Below are positions 1-40,555 of a stretch of DNA of 64,000 bases, one piece after another. The notes beneath the pieces were generated by a model that did not search any database, was not told where the DNA came from, and saw nothing but the letters and a program-made list of their open reading frames with translations. How positions within the stretch are numbered: the first letter of the stretch is position 1; each line of letters begins with the position of its first letter. Both the position numbers and the translations under genes were made by a program. This DNA is from Alistipes sp. (GTDB taxonomy: Bacteria; Bacteroidota; Bacteroidia; Bacteroidales; Rikenellaceae): positions 1,390 to 65,389 of the forward strand of contig JAFYRX010000024.1 in NCBI GenBank assembly GCA_017546725.1, read 5' to 3'.

Positions 1-1469
1 TTCTGCTTCATCATCATCGAGCACAATACCGGTGTAAACGTAACGGCTGCGGCAGTCGAAACGGTAAGAGTGATGGTAACCATCCAACCCATAGCGTTAA
101 ACAACACACCAGCCATACCCTGCACCATAGTCAAAGGCAAGAACACGGCGATAGTAGTAAGCGTACCACCCATTACAGAGATACCCACCTCCTTGGTAGC
201 GAAGATAGCCGCCTGCTTGGGCTTAGCACCTCGGTCAATATGCGTAGTGATATTCTCCAACACCACAATGGCATTATCCACAACCATACCGATGGCAATA
301 GATAGTGACGACATCGTGATGATATTGAGAGTCTCTCCTGTAGCCAAAATGTAGATGATGGCAGCCAACAACGAAATCGGAATAGTAAGCACAACCACAA
401 TCGTAGCACGCCAACGGCCCAAGAAGAGGAATACCACCAACATTACGAGCAAGAATGTTGTAATGATGGTATCACGCAACGAGTGAACTGTCGCAATGAT
501 GTTATCCGACGAGTCCATAATCGTAAAGATATTAACATCGGAGGGAAGGTTACCCTTTATCTCGTTAATATAAGCCTGCACGTTTTGGGCAATCTCTACA
601 GAGTTGGCACCAGACTTCTTCTGCACGATAATCATACCACCTTGCTGGCTACCGTGGTATGCCTCTTGAATACGCTCCTGAACAGAATCGTTAATTGAGG
701 CTACATCGCTAAGCAAGACAGGCGCACCGTTGCGATAACCCACTACGAGATTATACATCTCGCTGGGGTCCTCGAACTCGTGGTCAACACGCAATGAATA
801 GGCGTTAGAACCGATATCGAATGAACCTGCGGGAGTGTTACGGTTAGCGGCAGCAATAGCAGACGAAATCTGCTCGATAGAGAGGTTATATGCCTCCAAC
901 TTGCTGGGGTCGCAATATACCTGAATCTCACGCTGGGGGATACCTGCGATAGAGACTGTACCTACACCATCGACACGTGCCAACGGAGTTACAATCTGGT
1001 CATCCAAAATCTTATACAATCCCGACAAGCTCTCATCTGCCGTAACACCCACCATCAAGACGGGGAACATATCAGATGAGAACTTAAAGATGATAGGCTG
1101 ACTCACGCCATCGGGCAGAGTCGAAAGCATATCCAACTTATCGCGCACGTCGTTGGCCAAGATATCCAAATCGTAACCATACTCAAACTCCAATGATACG
1201 ATTGAGATGTTCTCCTTCGACTGTGAAGTAATATCCTTAAGGTGGTCAACACCATTAAGCACGTTCTCGATAGGGCGAGTAACATTGTTCTCGATATCCT
1301 CGGCACTCGCACCCGGATAAGTCGTCATCACCATCATAGCGTTCGACTCGATATCGGGGAATAGGTCGATACCCAATCGCGTAAGCGACACACCACCGAA
1401 AATCATAATCGCCACGAAGAGGATTATGGTGGTTATCGGGTTATTGACCGATGTCTTATATATATTCAT
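1..1469 (-). CDS. RND efflux permease subunit (AcrB/AcrD/AcrF family), runs off the window start
   Basis: Manual translation from ATG at 1469: MNIYKTSVNNPITTIILFVAIMIFGGVSLTRLGIDLFPDIE...TYPGASAEDIENNVTRPIE, a typical AcrB N-terminus; lies downstream of MFP and TolC genes. Absent from the ORF track because its stop is outside the window. Confidence 0.93.
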   Translation of the reverse strand, partial: MNIYKTSVNNPITTIILFVAIMIFGGVSLTRLGIDLFPDIESNAMMVMTTYPGASAEDIENNVTRPIENVLNGVDHLKDITSQSKENISIVSLEFEYGYDLDILANDVRDKLDMLSTLPDGVSQPIIFKFSSDMFPVLMVGVTADESLSGLYKILDDQIVTPLARVDGVGTVSIAGIPQREIQVYCDPSKLEAYNLSIEQISSAIAAANRNTPAGSFDIGSNAYSLRVDHEFEDPSEMYNLVVGYRNGAPVLLSDVASINDSVQERIQEAYHGSQQGGMIIVQKKSGANSVEIAQNVQAYINEIKGNLPSDVNIFTIMDSSDNIIATVHSLRDTIITTFLLVMLVVFLFLGRWRATIVVVLTIPISLLAAIIYILATGETLNIITMSSLSIAIGMVVDNAIVVLENITTHIDRGAKPKQAAIFATKEVGISVMGGTLTTIAVFLPLTMVQGMAGVLFNAMGWMVTITLTVSTAAAVTFTPVLCSMMMKQ

Positions 1470-1508
1470 CGTTCTGTGATTTTCTCGTTAAACAACAAAC
1501 TCATTTGA

Positions 1509-2540
1509 TTAGTTAGCACGCTCAACAGCCAAACCATCCTTCAAAACAGACTGGCCTGTTACGACAACCTCGTCACCATCGGCAAGACCGCTCAACACCT
1601 CATACTTGTCCTGCATACGGCGGCCCAACTCTATCTTCTGGTATGAAACAGTACCATCAGCCTTATAAACATAGATGAAACGCTCACCAGAACCCAACAT
1701 CTTAACTACAGCACGGTCGGGCACAACAACATTCTGGCGAGAGCCGTACTTCATTGTTACGCGAGCATACATACCTGGCTTGATTTGCTCCTTGCCATTA
1801 GGAATCACAACCTCAACAGGGAAGGTGTGAGTAGCGGCATCGATAGAGGGTGTGATGCGGTGAACCTTACCCTCGAAAGTCTGACCAGGAAGAGCATCCA
1901 ACTCGATGCTTACGGGCATACCCTTCTTAAGATATGAGTAGAGATTCTCCGAAACGCTGATAACAACCTTTGCGGGGCTAATCTGCTGTACTACGAAGAT
2001 AGGCTGACTAGCAACCATATCACCATTGTCATAGTTACGTGCAGTGATAACACCAGAGATAGGTGATACCAAAGTGGTGTTCTCCAAAAGATTCTCGTAA
2101 GTAAGTTTGGCAACCTCATATTGAGTCTTTACAGCCTCCCAACTTGCCTTTGACTCACCACCGAACTTATAGAGTTCGTCAGAACGCTCAAACGAAGCCT
2201 TTGCATTCTCATACTGAGCCTTTGCCTGTGCCAATGATGAGTTGTCCAACTCGGCTACCTTCTGGCCCGCAGAAACACGGTCACCTACATCAACCAATAC
2301 GCGTGTGATACGGCGAGGCTGCTGCGGAGTGATGTTATTAACGGCATAACCCTCTACAGTACCCATAAATACGCTCTGCATATCAACATCCTGAGTCTTT
2401 ACAACCTCGGTAGTAACCTTCGGCTTAACAACCTCGGCAGGCTGCTCGGCCACCTCGGCACTCTTCTTGCTATCGCAAGCAACGCTTGCTACACATACAC
2501 CGCAAACAAGCAGTGAACGAACAATTACATTCATTTTCAT
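1509..2540 (-). CDS. RND efflux periplasmic adaptor (membrane fusion protein), lipoprotein
   Basis: Lipobox-like SVAC; MFP motifs VDVGDRVSAGQ, SPISGVI, IKPGMYARV, GLADGDEVVVTG. Confidence 0.93.
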   Translation of the reverse strand: MKMNVIVRSLLVCGVCVASVACDSKKSAEVAEQPAEVVKPKVTTEVVKTQDVDMQSVFMGTVEGYAVNNITPQQPRRITRVLVDVGDRVSAGQKVAELDNSSLAQAKAQYENAKASFERSDELYKFGGESKASWEAVKTQYEVAKLTYENLLENTTLVSPISGVITARNYDNGDMVASQPIFVVQQISPAKVVISVSENLYSYLKKGMPVSIELDALPGQTFEGKVHRITPSIDAATHTFPVEVVIPNGKEQIKPGMYARVTMKYGSRQNVVVPDRAVVKMLGSGERFIYVYKADGTVSYQKIELGRRMQDKYEVLSGLADGDEVVVTGQSVLKDGLAVERAN

Positions 2541-2555
2541 ATCTTATCTCTCTTT

Positions 2556-3905
2556 TTAGTTTTCTTGTGAATATGTACCCTTAATCTTATCCAACGACAC
2601 CTGATTAATCAAGTAGTTGAAGATGGCTGTGCTGCGTGACAACTCGGCCTGTGTATATGCCAACTGTGAGTTATCGACATCAACCAATGTTCCGCCACCA
2701 ACCTCGTAACGCTTAACAGCGATTTCATAACCACGCTTAGCCTGCGAAATATTCTCCGATGAGGCGTGATACTGCTTAAGGCTGGTCTGCATACTGCTCT
2801 CGTACTGCATAATAGCGGTATGCAACTGACGCTCGGTATTCTCGCGCTGCAACTGCAATGTGGTAAGGTTTATCTTTGCCTGATTGATAGCGGCACGACG
2901 CTTACCACCTGAGAAGATAGGCACGTTAAGCGACAAAAGCGCTGTAGATGAGCCCATCCACTTATATTTATTAATAGCCATAGTCTCATCCATCGCATTT
3001 ACCATATAGTTGATAGATGCTGCAAGCGAGGGGATGTTTGTCGCGCGCTGCATACGGAGACTCTGGTTAAGCATACGCTCCTGAATGTCGAACTGACGCA
3101 TTGCAGAGTTGTTGGCGAGTGTTGTTGGAGTATCTACTCGAGCAGTCATCGCTGACTCAAAATCGGCCAACTTACCTGCACAATCGATGTTCTTGTCCAA
3201 ATCAAGGCCCAACAAAGCCTTCATCTGCCACAAGGCTACGATGATAGAGTTCTCAGCCTCAAAGACATTAGGCTCGGCATTGCTGACAGATACCTTTGAA
3301 CGGATAAAATCGTACTCTGAAACTGCACCTACGGCATATTTCTTCTCTACAATCTTATGATTCTCGACAGCATTGTTATATACTCGCTTGTATACCTCAT
3401 AAGAGTCCTTAGCCAACAAAACCTGATAGAAGGCCTTTGACACCTGCTCAATCATATCGATGCGTGACGAGCGAGCCTGCTCAACAGCCAACTCCACATC
3501 CATAGCCGAGAGTTTGAGTGAACGCCACAACTGCGCATTAACCAAAGGCATAGCAGCCGATACACCACCAGAAACGGTGTTGGTGGTACCCATCTTTACG
3601 GTCTGGCCCATAATGTGGAATGAGGGCTTTTCGATATAACGCTGGAATGAACCAGAACCCGTAATTTCGGGCCACAAAGCGGCATAAGTACCCTTCTTGG
3701 CATACTTCTTGGCCACGATGGTCTCATCGGCAATCTTCACCGTAGGATTCTCGCTCAAAGCGATTTCGAGAGCCTGCTCCAGAGTCAAGACCAAAGTTCC
3801 TGAATCAGCAGCGGCACTCCCTGTCTCTTGTGCCATTGCAGGCACCGTTGCTATGCCCAAAAGCATCAACAACGTAAAAAAGAGATTTTTCATCTTCATA
3901 ACCAT
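2556..3905 (-). CDS. TolC-family outer membrane efflux protein
   Basis: Signal peptide, LTLEQALEIALSENP, VPIFSGG, RYEVGGGTLVDV; operonic with MFP/RND. Confidence 0.92.
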   Translation of the reverse strand: MVMKMKNLFFTLLMLLGIATVPAMAQETGSAAADSGTLVLTLEQALEIALSENPTVKIADETIVAKKYAKKGTYAALWPEITGSGSFQRYIEKPSFHIMGQTVKMGTTNTVSGGVSAAMPLVNAQLWRSLKLSAMDVELAVEQARSSRIDMIEQVSKAFYQVLLAKDSYEVYKRVYNNAVENHKIVEKKYAVGAVSEYDFIRSKVSVSNAEPNVFEAENSIIVALWQMKALLGLDLDKNIDCAGKLADFESAMTARVDTPTTLANNSAMRQFDIQERMLNQSLRMQRATNIPSLAASINYMVNAMDETMAINKYKWMGSSTALLSLNVPIFSGGKRRAAINQAKINLTTLQLQRENTERQLHTAIMQYESSMQTSLKQYHASSENISQAKRGYEIAVKRYEVGGGTLVDVDNSQLAYTQAELSRSTAIFNYLINQVSLDKIKGTYSQEN

Positions 3906-3926
3906 TACTTAATTTTATACTTTATA

Positions 3927-4613
3927 TTAATTATTTTCATTCACACTTCCCTCACGCAGTTCGCGTTCCTCACGACGTTGCTTTAGGGTTTTGGGACGTG
4001 GCTCACGCGCAAGCAATTCATCGATAATCTGCAAGCCCTTGACCGTAGCGAGTCCTCGAAGGAAGTTTACCACCATAGCACCAAAAGCCTCCTCGCGGGT
4101 GACATCTTCGGGCAACGACACATTCATATCGTACATAAATATCGCGGTCGAAGAGAAGAACAGGCGAGCCATCAACTCAACATCGACAACAGGGTCTATA
4201 TAGCCATCCTTAACACATTGGTCCAAAGCATACTGCAGACCAGCAAGGCTTGTCTCTGATTGGAAACGTTGCAATCGCTCAAAGACATTTGGATAGAACT
4301 TCTTGAGATTGAAAGCCAATCGTTTCACCATTTCGTCGATATGACCGCCATAGGTAAAAATGCGCAAACTCTCGAGCAGCATCTCAAGCATATTGTCGCA
4401 TTGCTTCACTTTAGCAAAGAGTTCCTTATGACGCTTGACCATCGCATAAACCACACTCTGATAAAGCAACTCCTCCTTATCGCCAAACATCTCGTAGAGC
4501 GTACGCTTGGACATACCGAGCGAGGTTGCCACGTCGTCCATACGGACCGACTTGACGCCCAAAGTCATCATCATTCGCGATACGTGTTCCTTAACTTTCT
4601 CCTGCTGTGTCAT
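3927..4613 (-). CDS. TetR/AcrR family transcriptional regulator
   Basis: HTH motif GVKSVRMDDVATSLGMSKRTLYEMFGDKEEL; ATG 4613 chosen because a promoter motif lies at 4638-4645. Confidence 0.92.
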   Translation of the reverse strand: MTQQEKVKEHVSRMMMTLGVKSVRMDDVATSLGMSKRTLYEMFGDKEELLYQSVVYAMVKRHKELFAKVKQCDNMLEMLLESLRIFTYGGHIDEMVKRLAFNLKKFYPNVFERLQRFQSETSLAGLQYALDQCVKDGYIDPVVDVELMARLFFSSTAIFMYDMNVSLPEDVTREEAFGAMVVNFLRGLATVKGLQIIDELLAREPRPKTLKQRREERELREGSVNENN

Positions 4614-4637
4614 AATTTTTCTAAAATTATACGCCTG

Positions 4638-4678
4638 CAAATATATACAAAGAAAACTGAAAAACAAAAAAAGTTTTC
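4638..4678 (-). promoter_or_regulatory. Bacteroidetes -7 promoter element (TATATTTG) with adjacent inverted repeat GAAAACT-N13-AGTTTTC (candidate TetR operator)
   Basis: caaatata at 4638-4645; inverted repeat arms at 4652-4658 and 4672-4678. Confidence 0.55.
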
Positions 4679-5080
4679 AAGTTTTGCGGTTTTCGAGCAA
4701 TAATTTCACCATTTTGGCCAATCAATGCAAACCTAATTTAAAAATTTGCGTGTTTTCAATTAGCACATAACAAGAAAATGACACTCTACACTTTTGCCAA
4801 TACTTAAAAAGAACTTGACCTTTTGGGAGAGGCAAAGGTAAGCAAACAGCAAAGAATTAACGCAACAGAAGGTACAATATTATAGCCTTATTCGCTCTAT
4901 TTATAGGGCAAAGACTCGGTGCGCTTCACAATAGGACAGAAAATAATAAAAATCGGAATTAACAACAAAGCAAAAAAAATTCTGCTTGAATGACTCGGAG
5001 AGGTAACACCCCTACAACTACAAAGCGAATTTTGTGAAAATAAAAAGGCTGCAAAGGCCGAATAATTGAGTATTTTTGGT

Positions 5081-5088
5081 TATATTTG
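5081..5088 (+). promoter_or_regulatory. -7 promoter element for ruvB
   Basis: TATATTTG matches the Bacteroidetes TAnnTTTG consensus. Confidence 0.6.
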
Positions 5089-5168
5089 CAAAGAATATTT
5101 CCCAACGTAAGCAAGATTGTATAGCAGGCCGAACGGGGAGAAGAGAAATTGCAAAATCGGATACGACT

Positions 5169-6185
5169 ATGGGTATAGACCGAAATATGAGAAACATCGA
5201 GAGCGATGCGGATTTTGAAAACAAAATTCGACCACAAGAACTTACCGCCTTCTCGGGACAGGATAAGATTGTGGAGAATCTGAAGATTTTCATCAAGGCG
5301 GCTCTTATGCGTGGTGATTCGCTTGACCACGTTCTATTGCACGGCCCTCCAGGATTGGGTAAGACTACATTGGCAAACATCATCGCCAACGAGATGGGTG
5401 CGCAACTGAAAACTACATCGGGCCCCGTATTAGACAAGCCAGGCGACTTAGCGGGTTTGCTGACCAACCTCAACGCAGGCGACGTACTCTTTATTGACGA
5501 GATTCACCGCCTAAGCCCTATTGTCGAGGAGTACCTATACTCGGCAATGGAGGACTACAAGATTGATATTGTGCTGGACAAAGGCCCTTCGGCTCGCTCG
5601 ATTCAGATAGAGTTGGCTCCATTCACACTTATAGGCGCCACAACTCGTAGCGGATTGCTCACATCGCCCCTGCGTGCCCGCTTCGGCATTACCTGCCACT
5701 TGGAGTATTACGACACTGCAGTATTGAGTGGCATCGTGAAGCGTTCGGCTCGCATTATCGACATATCGATTGATGACAATGCGGCTTGGGAGGTTGCACT
5801 GCGTTCACGCGGTACGCCCCGTATTGCCAATGCTCTGTTGCGTCGTGTGAGAGATTTTGCAATGGTAAAGGGCGAGGGACACATTGACCTTGAGATTACA
5901 CGTTTTGCCCTTAAGGCGCTAAACATCGATTCGAGAGGTCTGGACCAGATGGACAACAAGATTCTCGCCACGATTATCGAGAAATTCAAGGGTGGCCCTG
6001 TAGGTCTGAATACCATTGCGACTGCCGTAGGCGAGGAGGCAGGAACGATAGAGGACGTTTATGAGCCATTCCTCATTAAGGAGGGATTCATCAAGCGCAC
6101 TCCACGTGGTCGTGAGGCTACCGAGTTGGCATACCGTCACTTGGGATTCACACCCGACAACGGTGGCGAGGGGTTGTTATTTTAA
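5169..6185 (+). CDS. ruvB: Holliday junction branch migration helicase RuvB
   Basis: IRPQ..., [16 protein letters not shown] Walker [34 protein letters not shown]; start moved to ATG 5169, downstream of the promoter. Confidence 0.97.
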
Positions 6186-6195
6186 TATATTATGC

Positions 6196-6290
6196 TGTCA
6201 TTCCGAAGGAGCATAGCGACTGTGGGAATCTCCAACGTTCCTCGATGTAGGAGATTGCCACGTCGGACTAAAGCCCTCCTCGCAATGACA
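6196..6290. repeat. REP/REPIN-like palindromic element (GTCATT...AATGAC type)
   Basis: Outer arms TGTCATTCCGAAGGAG / CTCCTCGCAATGACA; inner arms CGACTGTGGGAATCTCC / GGAGATTGCCACGTCG. Confidence 0.75.
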
Positions 6291-6342
6291 TAACAATAAT
6301 AACTATTCTTCTTAAATTGACTAACTAAAAACTACACTGAAT

Positions 6343-7467
6343 ATGAAAAAACTTACAATGATGGTCTGTGCTCTGATTTTGGCGGGTACAGCGTTGGCAC
6401 AAAGCCCAAAGGGCGAGCCTGTAATTCCCGTATATCCTAAATTGCTGGATGAGGGCTCATTCTCGATGATTATGGTCCCCGACCCACAGAGTTACACGAA
6501 GTTTGCAGCCAATCAGCCTCTGTTTGATTTGCAGACGGCTTGGATTGCGCAGAACATCAACCGATTGAACATCAAGGCCGCGCTTTTTACGGGTGATATG
6601 GTAGAGCATAATGGCAAGCAGATTTCATATCCTCTTCCGAACGCCTACAATGGCGACCAGACTGGCCGTCAGCAGTGGGAGGCTGTATCGAGAGCGTTGA
6701 GCCGTTTGGATAACCGCTTGCCTTATGTTGTAGCACAGGGTAATCACGACATCGGCCACATCACGGCTACCGACCGCCACTCATTGGCACCAGAGTTCAT
6801 CCGCCCCGAAAGAAATATTAAGTTTGAGAAGTGCTTGGTATCTACTTGCCCTAATTGGGAGGGTGTACACACTATGGAGAACTCGGCTTACGAATTCATC
6901 GATGAGGCGTGGGGTAAGATTTTGGTTATCACATTTGAGTTTGCTCCGCGTGACGAGGCTGTCGAGTGGGCAAAGCAACTCACCGAGTCAGAGGCATACA
7001 AGGACCACAAGGTAATAATCCTCACTCACTCTTGGTTAGATACTGCGGGTAATCGCATTGCCAAAGAGGGTTACACACTATCGCCTTGCAACTGGGCAGA
7101 GGCCGTATGGCAGAAGTTGGTATATCCGTCAAAGAATATCTGCTTGGTTTTGTGTGGTCACACTGGTGCCGCTCCGAAGATTGACGGCGACGTAGCAAAG
7201 ACTAACTTTAAGCCCACATCTTCATATCGCGTTGATAAGGCTGCCGATGGTCGCAACATCCCGCAGATGATGTTTAACTCGCAGCAGGGTGACGGCGACT
7301 GGAACGGTAATGGTGGTGACTGCTGGTTGCGCATTCTGGAGTTCAAGCCCGACGGCAAGACAATCAGCGTACGCACATTCTCACCTATGTTCGCGCTCTC
7401 TAAACTGACACAGCACTTGGCTTGGCGCACAGCAGAGTACGACCAATATGATATTGTGATTGAGTAA
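6343..7467 (+). CDS. Secreted calcineurin-like metallophosphoesterase
   Basis: Signal peptide; metal-binding motifs PDPQ, TGDMV, GNHD, LTHS, CGHT. Confidence 0.85.
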   Translation: MKKLTMMVCALILAGTALAQSPKGEPVIPVYPKLLDEGSFSMIMVPDPQSYTKFAANQPLFDLQTAWIAQNINRLNIKAALFTGDMVEHNGKQISYPLPNAYNGDQTGRQQWEAVSRALSRLDNRLPYVVAQGNHDIGHITATDRHSLAPEFIRPERNIKFEKCLVSTCPNWEGVHTMENSAYEFIDEAWGKILVITFEFAPRDEAVEWAKQLTESEAYKDHKVIILTHSWLDTAGNRIAKEGYTLSPCNWAEAVWQKLVYPSKNICLVLCGHTGAAPKIDGDVAKTNFKPTSSYRVDKAADGRNIPQMMFNSQQGDGDWNGNGGDCWLRILEFKPDGKTISVRTFSPMFALSKLTQHLAWRTAEYDQYDIVIE

Positions 7468-7486
7468 AGAGGATTCATTAGATACG

Positions 7487-7526: not shown

Positions 7527-7530
7527 TGCT

Positions 7531-7652: not shown

Positions 7653-7653
7653 T

Positions 7654-9358: not shown

Positions 9359-11164
9359 ATGCAAAAAATTCGCAACATCGCAATAATTGCGCACGTTGAC
9401 CACGGCAAGACGACACTGGTCGATAAGATGATTCTCGCAGGACATCTGCTTCGCACCGAGACCAATACGGGAGACCTGATTATGGATAATAACGACCTGG
9501 AGCGTGAGCGCGGTATCACAATCCTGTCGAAGAACGTATCGGTAATATACAAGGATTACAAAATCAACATTATCGACACCCCGGGCCACGCCGACTTTGG
9601 TGGCGAGGTGGAGCGAGTGTTGAATATGTGTGACGGAGTGTTGCTGTTGGTGGATGCCTTTGAGGGCACAATGCCGCAGACACGTTTCGTATTGCAGAAG
9701 GCGCTCTCGTTGGGTAAGAAACCCATAGTCGTAATTAACAAGGTGGATAAGCCAAACTGCCGTCCCGAAGTGGTGAATGAGCAGGTATTCGACCTGATGT
9801 TCTCGCTGGATGCTACCGAGGAGCAGTTGGATTACAAAACAATATATGGTTCTGCTAAGCAGGGCTGGATGTCACACATCTGGAACGAGCCGACAGACTC
9901 TATCGCTCCTCTGCTGGATGCCATTATCGACGAGATTCCTGCGCCCGAAGTGGTTGAGGGCACACCACAGATGCTCGTCACTTCGTTGGAGTATTCACCC
10001 TATGTAGGTCGTATCGCAGTAGGTAAACTCACACGCGGTGTGTTGCGTGCTGGTCAGAACGTAACACTTGCAAAGCGCGACGGCGAGACTATGATAAAGA
10101 CTCGAATCAAGGAGTTGATGGTATTTGACGGCCTGGGCAAGAAGAAGGTTGAGCAGGTAGAGTGTGGTGAAATCTGCGCTATGGTAGGAATCGAGGGCTT
10201 CGAAATTGGTGACACAATTTGCGACTACGAGAATCCCGAGCCGCTGCCCCCTATCGCTATTGATGAGCCTACGATGTCAATGTTGTTTACAATCAACAAC
10301 TCGCCATTCTTTGGTCGCGACGGTAAATTCGTAACATCACGCCACTTGAAGGAGCGTTTGGACCGAGAGTTGGAGCGCAACCTTGCTCTTAGAGTAGAGC
10401 CGGGATTGAATGCCGATTCATTTGTAGTATTTGGCCGAGGAGTGTTGCACCTCTCGGTATTGGTAGAAACTATGCGTCGTGAGGGTTATGAGTTGCAGGT
10501 AGGACAGCCCAAAGTTATCATCAAGGAGATTGACGGCGTAAAGTGCGAGCCTGTTGAGGAGATGACTGTAGATTGTCCCGATGAATGTGCAGGAACAGTT
10601 ATCGAGATGGTAACAAAGCGCAAGGGCAACCTTACGAATATGAATTCTGACGGAGAGCGTACACGCTTGGAGTTCTTGGTGCCGTCGAGAGGTATCATCG
10701 GTCTGCGTTCATCGATGTTGACCGCTACGGCAGGTGAGGCTATTATGACTCACCGCTTGAAGGATTTCGAGCCCTGGATGGGTGAGATTGAGATGCGTAC
10801 AAACGGCTCTTTGATTGCTTCGGAGACTGGCACAGCATACGCATATTCGATTGACAAATTGCAGGATAGAGGTCGTTTCTTTATCTCGCCTATGGATGAG
10901 GTATATTGCGGTCAGGTTGTGGGCGAAAGCACACGCTCGGGCGATATCACCATCAACGTAACAAAGGCAAAGCAACTTACCAATATGCGTGCTTCGGGAG
11001 CCGATGACAAGGCCGTTATCGTACCACCAAAGGTATTCTCATTGGAGGAGGCTTTGGAGTATATCAAGGCTGACGAGTACGTAGAGGTTACACCAAAGGC
11101 TATGCGCCTAAGAAAGATTCTTTTGAATGAGGTGGACCGTAAGCGTGCAGCAAAGCAGGAGTAA
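9359..11164 (+). CDS. typA: Translational GTPase TypA/BipA
   Basis: [53 protein letters not shown]. Confidence 0.98.
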
Positions 11165-24823: not shown

Positions 24824-24826
24824 CTG

Positions 24827-32458: not shown

Positions 32459-33577
32459 ATGATTGACCGAAAGATTTGTCGCCGCGATTTCCTACGAATG
32501 ATGGCCGCCGCAACAGCTGCTGCTACGCTTGCCCCGTCAGTCTTAGATGCTGCCAACTCGGATTCGGCAGCCCCTGCCCCACTACCTGCAAAGAAGATGC
32601 CTCAATGGAAGGGATTTAACTTGCTGAATAAGTTTAATCCCGACGCACAGTCGCCTTTCGATGAGAAGGATTTTGAGATTATGGCCGAGTGGGGATTTAA
32701 CTTTGCTCGCATCCCATTGTCATATTGGTGCTGGAGTTCGCAGGATGATTGGTACAAGGTAGATGAAAAAAACTTGAAAGAGATAGACCGCGTAGTAGAG
32801 TTCGGTAAGCAATACAAGATTCACGTTAACTTGAATTTCCACCGTGCTCCTGGCTACTGCATCAATCCACCACACGAAAAGGCAAAATTATTTGAAGAGG
32901 AGGAGCCGCTGAAGGCGTGCGAGTATCATTGGCGAATGTTTGCCGAACGATATAAATCCTACTCGTCAAAATATTTGAGTTTTAACCTTATCAACGAGGC
33001 TCCATCGATTGAAGATGCCAAGTACGAAAAGGTAGCACGTCGTCTGATTAAGGCTATACGCGACGTAAGTCCCAAGCGAACAATCATCGTAGATGGACTG
33101 GATGTAGGTAATCGCCCGTTGATGGCATTGACGGATGTCGATAATATCATCCAAAGCGGACGAGGTTATCAGCCTATGCTTATCTCGCATTACGAGGCAA
33201 GTTGGGTATATGGCAATGGACCGATGTATTACCCAAAGGAGAAGTTATCGTGGCCACTCAACGAGAATGGCAAGATATACGACAAGGAGTGGTTGCGCCA
33301 AACCTTAAAACGTAATTGGATGCCTTGGATTGAGGCAGGCGGTGCTGTGCATATCGGCGAGTTTGGTTGTCACAACCGCACGCCGCACGATGTGGCTCTC
33401 GCGTGGTTGAAGGACCAATTTGATTTGTTTGAGGAGAACGGCTGGGGATGGTCTTTGTGGAATCTCTACGGCTCGTTTGGCGTGCTGGATAGCGGACGCC
33501 GTGATGTAAAGTACGAGAATTACAAAGGTCACAAACTTGACAGACGAATGATGGAGTTACTGATGCAGTATAAGTAA
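32459..33577 (+). CDS. Glycoside hydrolase family 5 (GH5_36-like) with Tat signal peptide
   Basis: RRDFLR Tat motif; WKGFNL, FNFARIP, HRAPGY, FNLINEA acid/base, IGEFG nucleophile; promoter TATCTTTG at 32421-32428. Confidence 0.9.
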   Translation: MIDRKICRRDFLRMMAAATAAATLAPSVLDAANSDSAAPAPLPAKKMPQWKGFNLLNKFNPDAQSPFDEKDFEIMAEWGFNFARIPLSYWCWSSQDDWYKVDEKNLKEIDRVVEFGKQYKIHVNLNFHRAPGYCINPPHEKAKLFEEEEPLKACEYHWRMFAERYKSYSSKYLSFNLINEAPSIEDAKYEKVARRLIKAIRDVSPKRTIIVDGLDVGNRPLMALTDVDNIIQSGRGYQPMLISHYEASWVYGNGPMYYPKEKLSWPLNENGKIYDKEWLRQTLKRNWMPWIEAGGAVHIGEFGCHNRTPHDVALAWLKDQFDLFEENGWGWSLWNLYGSFGVLDSGRRDVKYENYKGHKLDRRMMELLMQYK

Positions 33578-33608
33578 TTACTCGTGAATAGTATTTAATG
33601 AAAGCAGT

Positions 33609-34697
33609 ATGGAAATAAAGAAGGTTACGACCAACAAACCCGTAATCGGCGAAAATGTCCTATACCTTCTAGTATGGGGTGCAGTGGTTCTAGTACCGAT
33701 CCTTAACTCGAAGATGATGTCCGAGGAGCACATCTATCTGGTTAATCTTATGACGGTATGGAGCAAATTGCTGCCCTACATTTTCATATTTATTATGCAC
33801 AACAACCTGCTAGTGCCTAAACTACTATTGAAACGACGCTACTTACTATATGTGCTCCTGTCGATAGCAATGCTCGTTGCACTCTTCTACCCGATGGAGT
33901 ATTACCAGGATTCGTTGCGCCGATTACCGTATGCTGGAGGTGACCTTTATGTCGTTCACGGACGCGCTTCATTCACTGACCTTGCTTGGTATTGGAATGT
34001 GTTGTTGGGAGTCTTTATGATGGGTGCAAACATAGGTATCAAATTTATCTTTATGTCGATTCAGACCGACCAACGAATGGAGGCCCTCGAAAAGCAGAGT
34101 CTGCAGGCTGAGATGGATTATCTGAAGTATCAGATTAACCCGCACTTCTTTATGAATACACTGAACAACATTCACGCGCTGATTGATATCGACACCGAGG
34201 CTGCCAAAGACACCGTCATAGAGTTATCGAAGATGATGCGTTATGTGTTGTATGATTCCGAGAATGCAGCAACAAACCTAGTAAGCGAGATGCGTTTCAT
34301 AGAGAATTACATAGCCTTGATGCGTATCAGATATACCGACAACGTTGATGTTCGCTTTACTGTACACGACACTGTACGTCCTACGGCAAAAGTACCGCCT
34401 CTACTCTTTATCGTGCTTGTCGAGAACGCATTTAAACACGGTGTAAGTTACAACAAGCCATCGTATGTCAATATTGACGTATGGTGTGATGAGAAGCAGG
34501 TATCGTGTCAAGTACAAAATTCGCGTCACGAACAAGCCGCCATCTCGAAACAATCGACAAAGAGTAGCGGTATGGGACTTGACAACATCCGTAAACGACT
34601 CGATTTATTGTTTGGAGAAGAGTATAACCTCGCAATAGATGACTCCAACAAAGAGCAATATACCATAAAACTTACCATCCCTATTAAAAATGATTAG
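33609..34697 (+). CDS. LytS-type membrane sensor histidine kinase
   Basis: TM N-terminus, LKYQINPHFFMNTLNNI, VENAFKHG, GMGLDNIRKRL. Confidence 0.93.
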   Translation: MEIKKVTTNKPVIGENVLYLLVWGAVVLVPILNSKMMSEEHIYLVNLMTVWSKLLPYIFIFIMHNNLLVPKLLLKRRYLLYVLLSIAMLVALFYPMEYYQDSLRRLPYAGGDLYVVHGRASFTDLAWYWNVLLGVFMMGANIGIKFIFMSIQTDQRMEALEKQSLQAEMDYLKYQINPHFFMNTLNNIHALIDIDTEAAKDTVIELSKMMRYVLYDSENAATNLVSEMRFIENYIALMRIRYTDNVDVRFTVHDTVRPTAKVPPLLFIVLVENAFKHGVSYNKPSYVNIDVWCDEKQVSCQVQNSRHEQAAISKQSTKSSGMGLDNIRKRLDLLFGEEYNLAIDDSNKEQYTIKLTIPIKND

Positions 34698-35445
34698 ATG
34701 TATAGCCATAGATGACGAGCCGTTGGCTCTGCGTCAAATAAAGAGTTATATCGAGCGATTGCCGCAGTTGCAGTTGTGTTCGTTGTGCAGTAGCGCCTAT
34801 CAGGCTCAAGAGGCATTGACGTCGGAGAGCGTTGACTTGATTTTCGTCGATATCAATATGCCCGATATGAGCGGTGTGGATTTCGTAAGAGGGCTGCAGT
34901 CGCCACCGATGGTGATTTTCACGACAGCCTACTCGGAATATGCCGTCGAGGGATTTCGTCTCGATGCCGTAGATTACCTGCTCAAGCCGTTCTCGTTTGC
35001 CGATTTTGAGAGAGCCGTCAATAAAGCTGCCTCATTGTTTGAATTGAAGCAACTGCGCGACTCGCAGCAAGTAACAACCGAGACCACACCTGCTACCGAA
35101 AGCGACAGCAACGAGTACATCTCAATAAAAGCCGATTACAAAGTATCGCTTGTACGTTATTCCGACATTATATACATTGAGAGTGTCGGAGAGTATGTAC
35201 GTCTGCATCTGGTAAATGCCTCGCCCATCACTACTCTCTTCCGATTGAAAAATATGGAGACGGCACTACCAGCCGACAGGTTTATGCGCGTTCATCGCTC
35301 CTATATCATCAATCTGGAGCACGTCGCAGCATACGCTCGTGGCAGAGTATATCTCGACAACGAGGAGTACGTACCCATTAGTGGCAACTATCGTGACACT
35401 TTCCGCGAGTACATCAACAAGATGCATCCAAAAGCGCAAGTATAA
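34690..35445 (+). CDS. LytTR family response regulator
   Basis: IDDEPLA, DINMPD, FTTAY, DYLLKP, FMRVHRSYIIN. Confidence 0.95.
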   Translation: MIRCIAIDDEPLALRQIKSYIERLPQLQLCSLCSSAYQAQEALTSESVDLIFVDINMPDMSGVDFVRGLQSPPMVIFTTAYSEYAVEGFRLDAVDYLLKPFSFADFERAVNKAASLFELKQLRDSQQVTTETTPATESDSNEYISIKADYKVSLVRYSDIIYIESVGEYVRLHLVNASPITTLFRLKNMETALPADRFMRVHRSYIINLEHVAAYARGRVYLDNEEYVPISGNYRDTFREYINKMHPKAQV

Positions 35446-35502
35446 TCTGCATCAGGGGATGATTAAAAACAAATCAGAATAAAACTTAAAACTATATAAC
35501 AG

Positions 35503-36639
35503 ATGATTACAAAAGAGACAAACCGCATCGTTTGGGTAGATTTACTGCGACTTATCGCGATGCTGATGGTCATAACCGCCCACTGTACTGATATGTATAA
35601 TGCCAGACCTCAAGAGGACCCAATGGCAGGCTTCTGGGGTATGTTCATAGGCTCGATGATGCGCCCGAGCGTACCACTGTTTGCTATGATGACAGGTTTG
35701 TTGTTGCTGCCCGTCAAAGCGTCACCTTCGGAGTTTTATCGCAAACGCATACCACGAGTAGTGATACCGATGGTATTGTGGTCGGTATTATACTATTTGG
35801 TGCCTTGGTTTACTGGATTGATGGGATTGGATAAATCTATAATCAGCGTTATGTTCCCCTACGTCTATGAGCCTTCGCAGGAGTTGGGCGCTACACTGAA
35901 AAATATAGCGCAGATACCTTTTACCTTCAACTTCTACACTACGCATATGTGGTATATCTATATGCTCATAGGATTGTATCTGCTTATGCCGTTCTTCTCG
36001 GCGTGGGTTAAGATGAATGACAAGGCTCTGACCAAGACCTACCTGATTTTATGGGGTATATCATTGCTCCTACCATATCTAATGCAGGTCATCTCGCCCT
36101 TTATCTTCGGTACTTGCCACTGGAATGCTTACGGTACGTTCCACTATTTCGCTGGATTTACGGGCTACCTATTGCTCGGTCACTTGATGGCCAAAGGCAA
36201 CTCGCTTGCTACCCGCAAGGTTGTCGCATTGGGCATAATAATGTACTTGGCAGGATATGCCGTTACATATTTTGGATTCTCTACAATCGGTGCCAAATAC
36301 ACCTATGCTGAGGCACCCGAACTGACACAACTATTCTGGTTATTCTGTACACCGAACGTAGCGCTTATGGCTTTAGGCGTATTTATGATTGTGCAACGCA
36401 TAAAGATTACTTCACCCAAAGTGCAGGCCATACTTGCCAATACTACAAAATGCAGTTTTGGAGCATATCTGATGCACTACATACTGATTGGACCGATTAT
36501 CATATTGCTTGCGCCGCTGAAACTGCCAACCGTATTATGCGTTATTTGCAGCGTGATACTCGTATTCGGTTCGTGCTGGGCGTTGACTGCACTGATATAC
36601 AAAATCGCACCGAAATGGGCTAAATACATTGTGGGATAA
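35503..36639 (+). CDS. Acyltransferase_3 family membrane acyltransferase
   Basis: RIVWVDLLRLIAMLMVITAH, VPLFAMMTG, HMWYIY, SFGAYLMH. Confidence 0.88.
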   Translation: MITKETNRIVWVDLLRLIAMLMVITAHCTDMYNARPQEDPMAGFWGMFIGSMMRPSVPLFAMMTGLLLLPVKASPSEFYRKRIPRVVIPMVLWSVLYYLVPWFTGLMGLDKSIISVMFPYVYEPSQELGATLKNIAQIPFTFNFYTTHMWYIYMLIGLYLLMPFFSAWVKMNDKALTKTYLILWGISLLLPYLMQVISPFIFGTCHWNAYGTFHYFAGFTGYLLLGHLMAKGNSLATRKVVALGIIMYLAGYAVTYFGFSTIGAKYTYAEAPELTQLFWLFCTPNVALMALGVFMIVQRIKITSPKVQAILANTTKCSFGAYLMHYILIGPIIILLAPLKLPTVLCVICSVILVFGSCWALTALIYKIAPKWAKYIVG

Positions 36640-36668
36640 TACAAGCAACCACCTATATAAGTGGGGCT

Positions 36669-37115
36669 TTATCCGAGATTGGGGAAAGTGGTTAGCGCCG
36701 TATAGCCCTCGCTGCAATGCTCATAGCAATAATGCTCCATACCGTTAGTTAGGATGATATAGCGGGCATTCACTACAGCATTGTAGCGTGTGGCCTGCTC
36801 AAATACGGCACTATCAATTTTAACATCGGGAGCCTTGCACTCTACCAGAGCAAGCGGCTGTGCACTATTGTCCATCACAACCACATCGGCACGCTGGGCC
36901 GTAGAATTTATATTGACAGGATACTCCTCTACGATGGATAGTTGTGGCGCGTGACAATGCGATATGAGGTACTCGACCAAATGACGACGCACCCACTCCT
37001 CGGGAGTCAGTACGACATACATACGACGAATGTTATCGAACACCATAATGCGTCCATTATCGCGTGTAGCACGCAAATTTATGGGTGGAAAATTTAGTTT
37101 TGGCGTTGAATTCAT
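36669..37115 (-). CDS. Stand-alone HsdR N-terminal-like (HSDR_N_2) domain protein
   Basis: LTPEEWVR, RADVV, VECKAP, Q..RYN, LTNG. Confidence 0.85.
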   Translation of the reverse strand: MNSTPKLNFPPINLRATRDNGRIMVFDNIRRMYVVLTPEEWVRRHLVEYLISHCHAPQLSIVEEYPVNINSTAQRADVVVMDNSAQPLALVECKAPDVKIDSAVFEQATRYNAVVNARYIILTNGMEHYCYEHCSEGYTALTTFPNLG

Positions 37116-37135
37116 CGTATAAATAAAATTTTTTA

Positions 37136-37166
37136 TAACTTTGGCCTTACAAATATAGCAAATATA
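37136..37166. promoter_or_regulatory. Overlapping divergent -7 elements
   Basis: TAACTTTG plus (37136-37143); TATATTTG minus (37150-37157 and 37159-37166). Confidence 0.5.
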
Positions 37167-37174
37167 AGCGAGAT

Positions 37175-38503
37175 ATGAAACGCATTTTATCAATCATAGC
37201 ACTTTTTGCACTCTCTGTGCAGATGTTGTCGGCACAGGAGTATGACTCCCCAGAGTATGTATCTTTGGGTAGAGAGTTGCCGCGTGCAAAGACCGTTGCC
37301 TACCCCACTGCTGGCGAGGCACAGGCTTTGGGCGCTGGTGCGGTATCCTCAAAGTATCTGCGTCCCATCACCAAGTGGGAGCGTACGGAGGAGGCCGATG
37401 CAGTGGTATTTACATCGAAGTATGTAATTCCTTTCGTATGGTTAAGCCGTTTGGCTATACTCTATGTCGATGAGGCATCAGGCGCCTACGAGGTATTAAT
37501 CAACGGCAAGAAGGTAGGTTATTCTGCAAACGCATTCACACCCGCAGAGTTTAACATCACCAAGGTATCGAAGGAGGAGACCAACACAATCTCTATCCGT
37601 GTCTTGAAGGAGCATTGGAGCCGTAAGATGGAGTGTTTTAACAAGAATACCGAGCCGCGTATCGGTGACGTTTATGTTACTTCGCAGCCCACAATCCGTG
37701 TACGCAACGTTGTACATCGCACAACAGTTGATATGAAGAGTGAGTTGGCAAGTGTCGAGGTAGGAATGGTCGTTAAGACTGAGTCGCTGAACGACAAGAA
37801 GGCTCGTATCCACTACGAACTTATCGCACCCGACACAACCGTCGTTACACACGGATACAAGGATGTTACGCTCGGAATGCGTGGCGAGGATACCGTTAAG
37901 TTTGTGACAAACATTCCTTATGTATATACGTGGTGCGCCGATATGCCTGTGCGTTACCGCTTGAATATCCGCACTCAAATCGAAGGCCGCGACCAGGAAT
38001 TCCAATCACATATGATAGGTTTCCGCACGGTAGAGTGTGACGAGGATGGCAACTTTATGATTAACGGCATCAAGACAGAATTGTTCTACCGCGACTTTGA
38101 CCCGCTAACCGTTACAGAGAAGGATATCATCGCGGCGCGCGTACTTAAATATAACGCTCTGCGATTCGATATGGGCGCAGTTCCGCAGAATGTATATCGT
38201 ATGTGCGATTCGTTGGGTATGTACGTCATAGCGCAGGTGCCTATCAACACTCGCGAGAGCGGTGCTTCGCGTCGCATCGGTGGCAACCCGTCGAATGACC
38301 CGAAATGGAAGAATGCTTTCCTTGACCGTGTAGAAACATCGTATCGTACGACTTGTGGTCAGGCTTGCGTGATTGGCTACGTTATGGCAGAGGACTCGGC
38401 TAATGGTATTAACCTATACGAGAGTTACTTACGCCTAAAATCGCTGGAGAAAACACGCCCCGTATTATACATCGAGGCCGGAGGCGAGTGGAATAGCGAC
38501 TAG
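37175..38503 (+). CDS. Truncated GH2 beta-galactosidase-like secreted protein
   Basis: LacZ-like N-terminus (GRELPRA), INGKKVGYS, PAEFNIT, IGFRTVE, INGI, YRMCDSLGMYV; ends part-way through the TIM barrel. Confidence 0.8.
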   Translation: MKRILSIIALFALSVQMLSAQEYDSPEYVSLGRELPRAKTVAYPTAGEAQALGAGAVSSKYLRPITKWERTEEADAVVFTSKYVIPFVWLSRLAILYVDEASGAYEVLINGKKVGYSANAFTPAEFNITKVSKEETNTISIRVLKEHWSRKMECFNKNTEPRIGDVYVTSQPTIRVRNVVHRTTVDMKSELASVEVGMVVKTESLNDKKARIHYELIAPDTTVVTHGYKDVTLGMRGEDTVKFVTNIPYVYTWCADMPVRYRLNIRTQIEGRDQEFQSHMIGFRTVECDEDGNFMINGIKTELFYRDFDPLTVTEKDIIAARVLKYNALRFDMGAVPQNVYRMCDSLGMYVIAQVPINTRESGASRRIGGNPSNDPKWKNAFLDRVETSYRTTCGQACVIGYVMAEDSANGINLYESYLRLKSLEKTRPVLYIEAGGEWNSD

Positions 38504-38565
38504 CAGAAAAATAAAAAAAATTAAAAAAAGTTTGCAAAAAATTTGCACAGAATAAAAAAGTGCCT

Positions 38566-38573
38566 TATATTTG
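38566..38573 (+). promoter_or_regulatory. tRNA promoter -7 element
   Basis: TATATTTG with upstream TTTG. Confidence 0.65.
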
Positions 38574-38598
38574 CACTCGCAATCAGCAAATGATTGAT

Positions 38599-38671
38599 GC
38601 CTCTTTAGCTCAGTTGGTAGAGCACGACACTCTTAATGTTGGGGTCCAGGGTTCGAGCCCCTGAGGGGGTA
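38599..38671 (+). tRNA. tRNA-Lys(CTT)
   Basis: Cloverleaf: D arm GCTC/GAGC, anticodon arm CGACA-CTCTTAA-TGTTG, T arm CAGGG-TTCGAGC-CCCTG; CCA not encoded. Confidence 0.95.
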
Positions 38672-38698
38672 CAAAAAGCAAACAAAACAAAAGTCGAC

Positions 38699-38728
38699 AG
38701 CCTCTCAGTGTATTCTGAGAGGCTTTTT
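38699..38728 (+). terminator. Terminator after tRNA-Lys
   Basis: AGCCTCTCAG-TGTATT-CTGAGAGGCT followed by TTTT. Confidence 0.8.
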
Positions 38729-38755
38729 GTTTTCAAGCCCTACGCGAAAAGGACC

Positions 38756-38810
38756 AAATTTGCAATCAAATATGCAATCAATACACTTCAACTCAAAAGT
38801 GATTGCAAAT
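38756..38810. repeat. Tandem 12-bp repeat plus an inverted copy (integrase arm-site-like)
   Basis: AAATTTGCAATC AAATATGCAATC (38756-38779) and GATTGCAAAT (38801-38810). Confidence 0.55.
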
Positions 38811-38855
38811 AACGCATAAAGTTACACAAAAGTATTGATTATCGACAGATAAGAT

Positions 38856-39287
38856 ATGGGAGATAAATTCGTACCACACAGCATAGACAACACCAACACA
38901 TTTGAAACTGAGATGTTGGGCGAAGTTAAGGCAGGTTTCCCAAGCCCCGCCGAAGATATTCGCGAAAAGTTGGATTTGATAAAATTGCTCGTAAGGCATA
39001 AGGCATCAACATTCTTCTTTCGCGTCAGTGGCGTGTCGATGGTAGATGCCGCTATGGACGAAGGTGACATAATCATTGTAGATAGAGCCATTGACCCATA
39101 TAACAATTGTAAGGCCGTGTGCTACATCGATGGCGAATACACCGTCAAGCGAGTGGAAATTTCAGACAAAGGCGTTCGACTGATGCCCGCCAACGAAAAT
39201 AATACAGCATACAAACCTATTGAAGTAACACCCGAAAACAACTTTGTAATTTGGGGTGTGGTTACTTGGGTTATTAAGAAGATGTAG
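38856..39287 (+). CDS. umuD: DNA polymerase V subunit UmuD
   Basis: VKAGFPSPA cleavage site, VSGVSM serine, TVKR lysine, IWGVVT. Confidence 0.93.
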   Translation: MGDKFVPHSIDNTNTFETEMLGEVKAGFPSPAEDIREKLDLIKLLVRHKASTFFFRVSGVSMVDAAMDEGDIIIVDRAIDPYNNCKAVCYIDGEYTVKRVEISDKGVRLMPANENNTAYKPIEVTPENNFVIWGVVTWVIKKM

Positions 39288-39289
39288 AG

Positions 39290-40555
39290 ATGTTCGCCCT
39301 AGCCGACTGCAACAACTTTTTCGTCTCTTGCGAGCGTGTCTTTAGGCCCGATTTACAGGGTAAGCCAGTCATTGTTCTATCGAGCAATGATGGATGCGCT
39401 ATTGCGCGTAGCAACGAGGCCAAAGCATTGGGCATAAAGATGGGCGCACCACTATTCAAGATTCGCGATATTATAGCCAAACATAACGTAGCAGTCTTCT
39501 CGGGCAATATGGCCCTTTATGGAGATATGTCACAACGCGTACGCTGGGTATTGGAAGGATACGCACCATCTGTCGAGGTTTATTCCATTGACGAATGTTT
39601 CCTGGATTTAAGGGGATTGACGGGCACTGATTTCGACGCCTACGCAAAGGATATTTCCGCACAATGCTGGAGACAAACCTCCATCCCCGTTTCCGTCGGC
39701 ATAGCCCCAACTAAAACACTCGCCAAGATTGCATCAAAACTCTGCAAACAGTACCCCAAGTTGCGTGGTGGATGTTATATGCACCGACCTCAAGACATCG
39801 AGAAAGTGTTACGAAAATTCCCCATTGAGGATGTTTGGGGTATTGGGCGTAGGTCTGCTCCAAAACTTAATGCCTTAGGAGTATACACCGCCTACGAGTT
39901 TACCCTACTATCCGAGTCACAGGTTCGCTCTATGCTCGGCATAACGGGACTTAGAACCTGGAAGGAGTTGCAAGGGATTCCCTGCATTGAGTTTGAGGAT
40001 GGCTTTGAAGCCAAGCAATCGATATGCGTATCACGAAGTTTTTCATCAGAGATATACGATGTTAAGGAGTTGCATGAGCAAATAGCCAACTTCGCGGCAT
40101 CGTTGGCCGAAAAGTTACGCCAACAGAGGAGCGTTGCGGCAGAGATGATAGTGTTTGCTTATACCAATCGATTCAAGGAGTCGCTACCCCAGACCTATTC
40201 AAATGCTTTGATATCACTCCACACTCCGACTTCCGACCAAAGAACAATTATTGCACAGGCTGTTAATACCACCAACAAGGTTTTTATGGATGGCTATGGT
40301 TACAAGAAGGCAGGAGTAATAGCCTCGAAGATTATTGCCGAAAGCGATGTGATGCACTCATTGTTTGAAGACACTGAGTCTATCGAGCGGGAGCATAAGA
40401 TAACGACAGCACTGGACTCTATAAATGCCACCTTCGGCAAAGGCACTATCAAGTTGGCTATTCAGGGGAATGGCAGAATCAAAACCGCCAGCGACAACCA
40501 ATCTCCACACTACACAACCAGATGGAGCGACATCCCCAAGGTAACCGTGAAGTGA
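39290..40555 (+). CDS. umuC: Y-family DNA polymerase V subunit UmuC
   Basis: DCNNFFVSCERVFRPDL, SNDGCAIARS, YSIDE, VWGIG, SPHYTTRWSDIP. Confidence 0.95.
   Translation: MFALADCNNFFVSCERVFRPDLQGKPVIVLSSNDGCAIARSNEAKALGIKMGAPLFKIRDIIAKHNVAVFSGNMALYGDMSQRVRWVLEGYAPSVEVYSIDECFLDLRGLTGTDFDAYAKDISAQCWRQTSIPVSVGIAPTKTLAKIASKLCKQYPKLRGGCYMHRPQDIEKVLRKFPIEDVWGIGRRSAPKLNALGVYTAYEFTLLSESQVRSMLGITGLRTWKELQGIPCIEFEDGFEAKQSICVSRSFSSEIYDVKELHEQIANFAASLAEKLRQQRSVAAEMIVFAYTNRFKESLPQTYSNALISLHTPTSDQRTIIAQAVNTTNKVFMDGYGYKKAGVIASKIIAESDVMHSLFEDTESIEREHKITTALDSINATFGKGTIKLAIQGNGRIKTASDNQSPHYTTRWSDIPKVTVK

Follow-up and report, generated by a model that had tools for sequence, protein, structure and literature searches.

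The window analyzed here is a 64,000-nt stretch of the genome of an Alistipes sp. (positions 1,390–65,389 of contig JAFYRX010000024.1, assembly GCA_017546725.1). It comprises a host backbone purged of the five 4-bp palindromes CATG, GATC, AGCT, CCGG, and CTAG (positions 1–43,600), followed by a foreign, low-GC polysaccharide synthesis island (43,601–64,000, minus strand). With expected 4-mer counts taken from a maximal-order Markov model, the backbone contains 1 CATG (159 expected), 1 GATC (181 expected), 10 AGCT (125 expected), 12 CCGG (90 expected), and 16 CTAG (73 expected). Up to position 40,072 the counts are 0 for CATG (~147 expected), 1 for GATC (~170), 10 for AGCT (~117), 10 for CCGG (~85), and 12 for CTAG (~65); the next-lowest 4-mer has an observed/expected ratio (O/E) of 0.71, which sets these five words apart. 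A preliminary description, made by reading the stretch line by line, had reported the lack of CATG before a first copy at 40,073, in umuC, a depletion of GATC with a single copy at 33,698, and a reduction of AGCT. All three observations stood in the automated Markov-corrected counts, in the window as well as genome-wide, with ratios nowhere near 1. The depletion of CCGG and CTAG had been overlooked, and the depleted region does not end at 40,072, as proposed, but at around 43.6 kb, the CATG at 40,073–40,076 being a stray residual site.

The island carries genes for epimerases, Polysacc_synt_2, an EpsG polymerase, and a MatE-like flippase, and extends ~600 bases past the end of the window. Its observed/expected counts are 53/88 for CATG, 41/84 for GATC, 66/80 for AGCT, and 17/16 for CCGG, and it is therefore an internal control for the purge. 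The five words return within an epimerase gene (43,489–44,367), at the edge of a swapped polysaccharide cassette, while the flanking low-GC genes of the locus are purged: the distal ones (40,890–43,478, minus strand, 35–42% GC; NTP_transf_5, DUF6016, and Glycos_transf_4) contain no CATG, GATC, or AGCT, from which we infer an older acquisition or an origin in another avoiding lineage. The sole GATC before 43.6 kb (33,698–33,701) lies within an open reading frame (ORF) at 33,609–34,697 and the first CATG within umuC (39,290–40,555; Pfam IMS), whose umuDC pair (38,856–40,555) directly precedes the polysaccharide locus. As a marker gene, positions 9,359–11,164 (plus strand) encode what we take to be a TypA/BipA-like GTPase, 93–95% identical to those of herbivore-gut Alistipes sp.

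Extent and nature of the depletion

The purged backbone of the window is a sample of the genome-wide state. In the assembly (2.14 Mb in 74 contigs, 85% complete and 3% contaminated) the O/E were 0.024 for CATG, 0.028 for GATC, 0.084 for CTAG, 0.116 for AGCT, and 0.133 for CCGG. A backbone of 2.04 Mb, obtained by excluding contig C32 past 41.4 kb and 11 small contigs whose counts were odd, showed observed/expected counts of 95/7,220 for CATG, 100/8,496 for GATC, 482/6,196 for AGCT, 597/4,718 for CCGG, and 229/3,223 for CTAG. This corresponds to O/E of 0.013, 0.012, and 0.08 for CATG, GATC, and AGCT, with ~99% of the expected CATG and GATC gone. Karlin-type ratios (Kr; own implementation) of the backbone were 0.021 (CATG), 0.022 (GATC), 0.097 (AGCT), 0.178 (CCGG), and 0.081 (CTAG), all below the avoidance cut-off of 0.78, and that of CATG in the whole assembly was 0.038. 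Other words are also depleted genome-wide (GTCGAC, 0.14; CCGCGG, 0.30; GAACC/GGTTC, 0.52; GACCC, 0.56; CTNAG, ~0.6; GCWGC, 0.74) and are possibly traces of other systems. Nine of the 11 contigs set aside have diverged duplicates elsewhere in the assembly; contigs C9, C10, C11, C15, C25, C26, C50, C61, and C71 show other word profiles, with duplicates mostly 72–92% identical, and the duplicated small contigs, which include two pieces of the S8 ribosomal-protein operon, are likely contamination from a sister species. Additionally, a small recent element at C32:80,514–85,475 (L246) contains an integrase and three unnamed ORFs of 33–37% GC that keep CATG and AGCT.

Codon or dinucleotide bias, which the preliminary description had contemplated as a full explanation, does not account for the depletion. 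Over 1,633 ORFs (own ORF caller; ORFs past 42 kb on C32 excluded) and three within-gene shuffles of synonymous codons, the O/E remained at 0.015 for CATG, 0.021 for GATC, 0.076 for AGCT, 0.118 for CTAG, and 0.168 for CCGG, and the control palindromes gave 0.95 (GGCC), 0.99 (TCGA), 1.15 (TGCA), and 0.69 (CGCG). The depletion was present in all three frames and also in non-coding DNA (CATG, 0.055; GATC, 0.074; AGCT, 0.28). Two traits of codon use seen in the window, the avoidance of a final C in the codon before Met and the preference for GAG TTG to encode Glu-Leu, extend to the genome: C precedes 38 of the 16,353 internal Met codons, and there are 57 GAG-CTN for 2,092 GAG-TTR. Likewise, there is a T-to-C shift in His codons before G (27 CAT, 2,832 CAC) and in Asp codons before C (50 GAT, 3,650 GAC).

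The changes that remove sites were examined in 230 pairs of orthologues with the closest sisters then fetched. None of the 108 CATG of the sisters and 3 of their 315 GATC are kept here, and in the nnA-GCT frame only 1 of 372 AGCT is kept, vs. 108 of 636 TGCA; this last result bears on mutation because deamination in that frame would change an alanine. Sites were lost through any of their four positions, and the differences not explained by deamination amounted to 47/86 for CATG, 159/254 for GATC, and 104/146 for CCGG. Since the depletion survives codon shuffling, affects all frames and non-coding DNA, and involves changes impossible for cytosine deamination, the loss of sites was likely caused by selection, and not by composition or mutation.

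Restriction-modification genes here and in relatives

The preliminary description attributed the depletion to restriction-modification (R-M) systems against CATG and GATC that this lineage carries elsewhere in the genome, or long carried. The first part was not borne out, as we found no cognate methyltransferase or nuclease in the 85%-complete assembly. Profile searches (PF01555, PF00145, PF02086, PF04471, PF05315, PF04556, PF06044, and PF02976) gave no match to N4/N6, C5, or D12 methyltransferases, IceA, DpnII, DpnI, MutH, or Mrr; tblastn with 20 R-M proteins from relatives retrieved no methyltransferase, only an HNH gene in contig C35 and one weak match; and there was no catalytic-motif candidate among the 1,633 ORFs. 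Because the assembly is incomplete, this does not prove that an enzyme is absent. Sub-threshold matches to PF02384 and PF07669 were read as PrmC-like and tRNA methyltransferases, and matches to PF04851 as PriA, UvrB, RecG, Mfd, and an UvrD-like helicase, names that we assume from their sequences.

Three solitary genes deserve mention. The HNH gene (C35:18,987–19,754; L244:1,988–2,755) adjoins ftsY, has 32% GC, and encodes a 255-aa protein with 5,881 homologs. The nuclease domain of this protein resembles those of VcaM4I and TagI in both sequence and fold, below the NCBIfam cut-off, and its all-helical N-terminal part did not match any solved sensor domain. The gene was not found in any of five sisters sharing the purge. 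It is a candidate modification-dependent (Type IV) nuclease in a genome without detected methyltransferases. A Vsr mismatch endonuclease gene (L245:609–1,175), with no adjacent C5 methyltransferase, is in C19 (2.6 kb), a contig where CATG and AGCT are retained. Lastly, a stand-alone gene in the window (36,669–37,193, minus strand) encodes a 174-aa HSDR_N_2 domain; further Type I subunits were not found in the assembly, the search not extending to the S subunit.

At the lineage level, the claim of a long-carried CATG system fared better: sister G073 encodes an IceA/NlaIII-family nuclease with a D12 methyltransferase, and, of 151 genomes drawn from the genus, the four with IceA are all CATG-poor. 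In this survey we used 6-mers as proxies, counted per Mb (ACATGA <20/Mb for CATG-poor, CGATCA <220/Mb for GATC-poor, and TAGCTG <30/Mb for AGCT). CATG-poor genomes numbered 25, including all the IceA carriers (Fisher p 6e-4), and GATC-poor genomes 74, including 11 of the 13 DpnII carriers (Fisher p 0.008), although both p values are overstated because kin are not independent. Six genomes fell below the AGCT threshold, among them both carriers of an unnamed 293-aa ORF. The depletion of CATG is thus unusually strong, as first described, but not unique, with similar values in 25/151 genomes of the genus and a Kr of 0.03 in Helicobacter hepaticus; none of the 13 genomes of at least 2.6 Mb was CATG-poor. 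The IceA genes of the four genomes have no stops (PF05315, E ~1e-113) and are all within 200 bases of a PF02086 match (D12 methyltransferase), and three of these carriers have no CATG in ~20 kb each, with GATC at 0.90–0.94. DpnI was found in 2/151 genomes, both GATC-poor; DpnII was absent, by profile search, from the closest sisters G002, G006, G028, G035, G073, and G082. In G161 and G159, a 174–176-aa ORF with no Pfam or PADLOC match (L146:47–568 and L150:889–1,416) is adjacent to DpnM-like methyltransferases. As G159 lacks a DpnII match despite being one of the most GATC-poor genomes, this ORF may encode another GATC nuclease.

A comparison of word sets across 80 named loci, 40 regions of genus genomes, and a quick tree showed that avoidance is patchy across the tree, with a word set proper to each small-genome species; as examples, G003 avoids GATC, CCGG, GGCC, and ACGT, and G014 avoids TCGA and ACGT. 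High-GC Alistipes mainly avoid CTAG, which is low in most of the Bacteroidales loci examined and is treated as a special case in the available parts of Rusinov et al. (2015; PMC4687349). The depletion of CTAG is mostly a general Bacteroidales/Alistipes background and need not be driven by restriction. ACGT is near 0 in G124, G147, G161, G067, G003, and G166, and the cassettes in L202–L205, L163, and L164, with unnamed partner ORFs, are possible ACGT systems.

The unnamed 293-aa ORF (L192:5,117–7,549, in contig C13 of G073; L196; L337; L338; and L238–L241) has 508 homologs, some 91–99% identical to that of G073, with no match in Pfam, NCBIfam, or PADLOC and none to plasmids. The family shows an invariant PxD...SxK pattern and has a methyltransferase neighbor in 7/8 loci. 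The best fold matches of its model (predicted local distance difference test, 86) were MspI and HinP1I (PDB 1sa3 and 1ynm/2fkc); these matches are weak (Foldseek E 2.4e-4; VIA Z 5.5–5.8; root-mean-square deviation ~7 over 165–174 residues; 9–12% identity; TM-score ~0.2). MspI and HinP1I cut CCGG and GCGC, respectively. In spite of the likeness in fold, depletion in the hosts points to AGCT (O/E 0.04 in G073, 0.05 in G097, and 0.09 in G545) and not to CCGG, rejected as a target with values of 0.36–0.59 in carriers. CATG was also rejected, as in G545 it is not among the eight lowest palindromes and the cassette contains 10 copies. The 293-aa protein is a candidate MspI-like PD-(D/E)XK nuclease whose predicted target is probably AGCT.

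Of 80 viral loci related to a prophage of G073 (L250–L329), ratios were <0.1 for GATC in 73, for GGCC in 76, and for CTAG in 65. CATG was avoided in only 2, of which one encodes a terminase 100% identical to that of G073; the prophage regions of G073 itself (L193, L194, and L226) contain 0–1 CATG and no GATC. This pattern is consistent with a pressure on CATG that is particular to this host lineage, although prophage DNA also shares the selection acting on the host. The avoidance of GATC, GGCC, and CTAG by this family is akin to the restriction-site avoidance of phages described in the accessible part of PMC12707154, with the difference that the purge of the host chromosome is, in this case, as deep as that of its phages.

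Gain and probable loss of cassettes

The R-M cassettes of relatives consist of two or three genes, with 32–35% GC vs. 47% of the host, lying between housekeeping genes (whose names we also take from their sequences); no integrase was seen beside them, and no systematic search was made for one. At least three of the four IceA cassettes have different neighbors, and the IceA proteins are 67–72% identical. G073, which is the closest of the sisters tested (~83% nucleotide identity), is even more depleted than this genome in part, with observed/expected counts over 452 kb of 3/1,611 for CATG, 11/1,788 for GATC, and 51/1,135 for AGCT. Its IceA and D12 methyltransferase genes are between dapB and lepB (cassette GC, 32%), and the 293-aa ORF, with a C5 methyltransferase, is at purF. 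Our genome is empty at both sites, at rimO-ftsY, where G006 has a cassette, and at the site used in G002 (34-base anchor). This last cassette is unlikely to be hidden at the break between contigs C44 and C24, as the first 34 bases of C24 match its far flank. As in the trace of a lost R-M system, a cognate system occurs in relatives and was not found here: for CATG the IceA cassette of G073, for GATC the DpnII genes of 13 genus genomes (none of them the closest sisters), and for AGCT, by predicted specificity only, the purF cassette. The IceA cassette of G073 was itself rejected as the cause of the purge, since dapB-lepB is also empty in 5/5 other sisters and in runs X4, X11, and X12 (X5 was not clearly resolved).

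The purF cassette seems to be present in one of four near-conspecific populations: a contig from run X6 has 2,517 letters at purF between anchors that hold 2,516 in G073, with flanks 94–98% identical, although the insert is matched by place and length only, and runs X5, X11, and X14 bridge the site empty. In 350 kb aligned between our genome and G073 there are 63 vs. 19 AGCT (p 1e-6), while GGCC, GTAC, and ACGT are equal; other words differ in either direction (CCGG, 92 vs. 253; CTAG, 38 vs. 16; CGCG, 797 vs. 1,065). For AGCT, and not for CATG, GATC, or CCGG, these results support the loss of the cassette followed by a rebound of its sites.

Explanations for the purge and known systems

The purge is real and genome-wide, and likely driven by restriction; it is a known effect at a known extreme. 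We favor, with a probability of about 0.7, that it represents the traces of two-gene Type II R-M systems serially gained and lost. Ancestors would have repeatedly carried such cassettes inserted between housekeeping genes, and from time to time the nuclease would cut host sites left unmethylated, with weak selection probably favoring the changes that destroy them. A cassette resident long enough would purge its word and, once lost, leave a gap behind, into which sites slowly creep back, as may be occurring with AGCT. The selection needed is weak, with 2Ns of ~3–6 per site under mutation-selection-drift balance.

Several observations weigh against this explanation, besides the relatedness of the surveyed genomes and the way the X6 insert was matched. 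No CATG, GATC, or CCGG enzyme could be tied to the past of this lineage itself; the IceA cassette at dapB-lepB was gained late and only by G073, in an already CATG-poor lineage, and therefore cannot have caused the shared purge; and the differences with G073 in CATG (5 vs. 0, p 0.06) and GATC (5 vs. 2, p 0.45) are not significant. In the genus, IceA has no match in 21 of the 25 CATG-poor genomes (in 6 of 8 when completeness is 90% or more), the 11 most GATC-poor ones have no match to DpnII or DpnI, MutH was found in 0/10 genomes tested, and the DpnII carriers G008 and G089 are not strongly depleted. As for AGCT, carrier G521 is barely depleted (O/E 0.72), as is the metagenome locus L238 (15/29), and 515 of the 797 single-base differences (65%) are C>T/G>A, also expected from deamination. 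Finally, according to the data seen in PMC4687349, H. pylori carries CATG systems at a Kr of ~0.93, and therefore residence alone does not purge.

The alternatives overlap in part with serial gain and loss. The strongest, which we nevertheless consider clearly less likely, is selection through DNA transfer instead of self-cutting, whereby, in populations with a cassette in only some of the strains, site-free alleles survive exchange and site-poor chromosomes acquire or shed cassettes unharmed. It would agree with the apparent polymorphism of the purF cassette, with the landing of IceA at dapB-lepB where sisters were already CATG-poor, and with the lack of a resident enzyme in most avoiders, and a similar exchange argument was proposed for GATC in the consulted part of PMC4687349. 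However, the polysaccharide island entered with many sites, and plain gain and loss predicts the same counts.

Slightly less plausible still is that CATG and GATC systems are resident here, either missing from the assembly, with low-GC cassettes left unbinned, or belonging to families missed by the models. The assembly is incomplete and fragmented, 16/148 contig ends have <36% GC, several partner nucleases of relatives lack Pfam or PADLOC matches, and there is no significant rebound of CATG or GATC over G073. Conversely, the cassettes of relatives assemble well, in ordinary chromosomal contigs; the four known cassette sites are empty here, and the homology and motif searches were negative; G111 and G125, 98–100% complete, are CATG-poor without IceA; and the genome tolerates a 21-kb island in which CATG occurs 53 times.

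We find improbable that selection acted against methylated sites, this strain being the unmethylated side of a DpnI/DpnII-like pair in which modification-dependent nucleases, such as the HNH protein of C35, penalize sites when a methyltransferase arrives. The solitary location of that gene, its VcaM4I/TagI-like domain, the absence of detected methyltransferases, and the two GATC-poor DpnI carriers are in line with this idea, but the gene was not found in the purged sisters, so it is probably too recent, and, within the part of PMC4687349 consulted, Type IV sites other than GATC are not avoided.

Mutational decay without selection, through a C-to-T deamination raised by methylation, is rejected as the main cause: although the system predicted to act on AGCT includes a C5 methyltransferase and deamination may add to the loss of AGCT, sites also vanish where deamination alters the protein, via A/T positions, and via transversions, and CTGG/CCAG, the deamination product of CCGG, is itself low (0.71). 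Library preparation, assembly, or codon bias can be dismissed as the source of an artefact, for even if this is a metagenome-assembled genome holding some sister-species contigs, contigs of up to 202 kb are nearly site-free, the island on the same contig keeps its sites, independent sister assemblies agree, and codon shuffling leaves the depletion.

A more speculative extension of serial gain and loss, which we consider doubtful, is that the chromosomes of small-genome herbivore-gut Alistipes are restriction-proof by sequence, not by methylation, and that Type II cassettes circulate among them as plug-in two-gene modules. If so, cassettes would lose their addictive grip, enter mainly pre-cleared genomes, and leave freely; a strain could live without any DNA methyltransferase, carrying instead a methylation-sensing nuclease; and the words missing from each species would be a record of its former enzymes and would predict what unnamed nucleases cut, such as AGCT for the 293-aa family.

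That such words are avoided, to what depth, and that the avoidance outlasts the enzyme are already published. This lineage adds several stages side by side in a single genus, namely carriers, empty sites, a cassette that is apparently polymorphic, and a rebound that can be measured. With these, it becomes possible to test the gain-purge-loss model and whether the enzyme or the purge came first, and the lineage likewise suggests what unnamed nucleases may cut. In practice, such gut bacteria would be under-sampled by methods relying on enzymes that cut GATC, CATG, or AGCT, as in Hi-C binning and restriction-based libraries, and the remaining sites would flag foreign islands and contaminant contigs. 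A literature search retrieved no study of site avoidance in Alistipes or Bacteroidales, with subscription journals and bioRxiv supplements mostly outside its coverage.

Rusinov et al. (2015; PMC4687349) described site avoidance, the gain-purge-loss model, and the "traces of lost R-M systems"; in the portion available, Alistipes is represented in their pair table by a single row (A. shahii, CTAG 0.05). Our genome resembles their cases in having 4-bp palindromes far below a Kr of 0.78, the enzyme found only in relatives, and a slow rebound. It differs from those in the accessible text in that five words are affected at once, in a genus where 25/151 species-level genomes are equally CATG-poor, with their own sets, and in that a partial rebound accompanies an empty site and a cassette that is apparently polymorphic. 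Systems like those known for CATG (NlaIII and H. pylori IceA1-HpyIM) and GATC (DpnII) are represented in relatives by IceA plus D12 and DpnII cassettes, IceA being linked to NlaIII and CATG in the part of PMC13340068 consulted; they were not found in our genome, and H. pylori itself, at the Kr given above, does not avoid CATG (PMC4687349). The closest parallels, among 30 of the 43 CATG rows of supplement 4 in PMC4687349, are H. hepaticus (Kr 0.03), H. cinaedi (0.05–0.07), and Gallibacterium anatis (0.15), which avoid the same word to the same depth as our genome (0.038 for the assembly and 0.021 for the backbone). These genomes encode a CATG system, in contrast to ours, in which none was found, and sister G073, with 3 CATG of 1,611 expected by the Markov model, is purged more deeply still.

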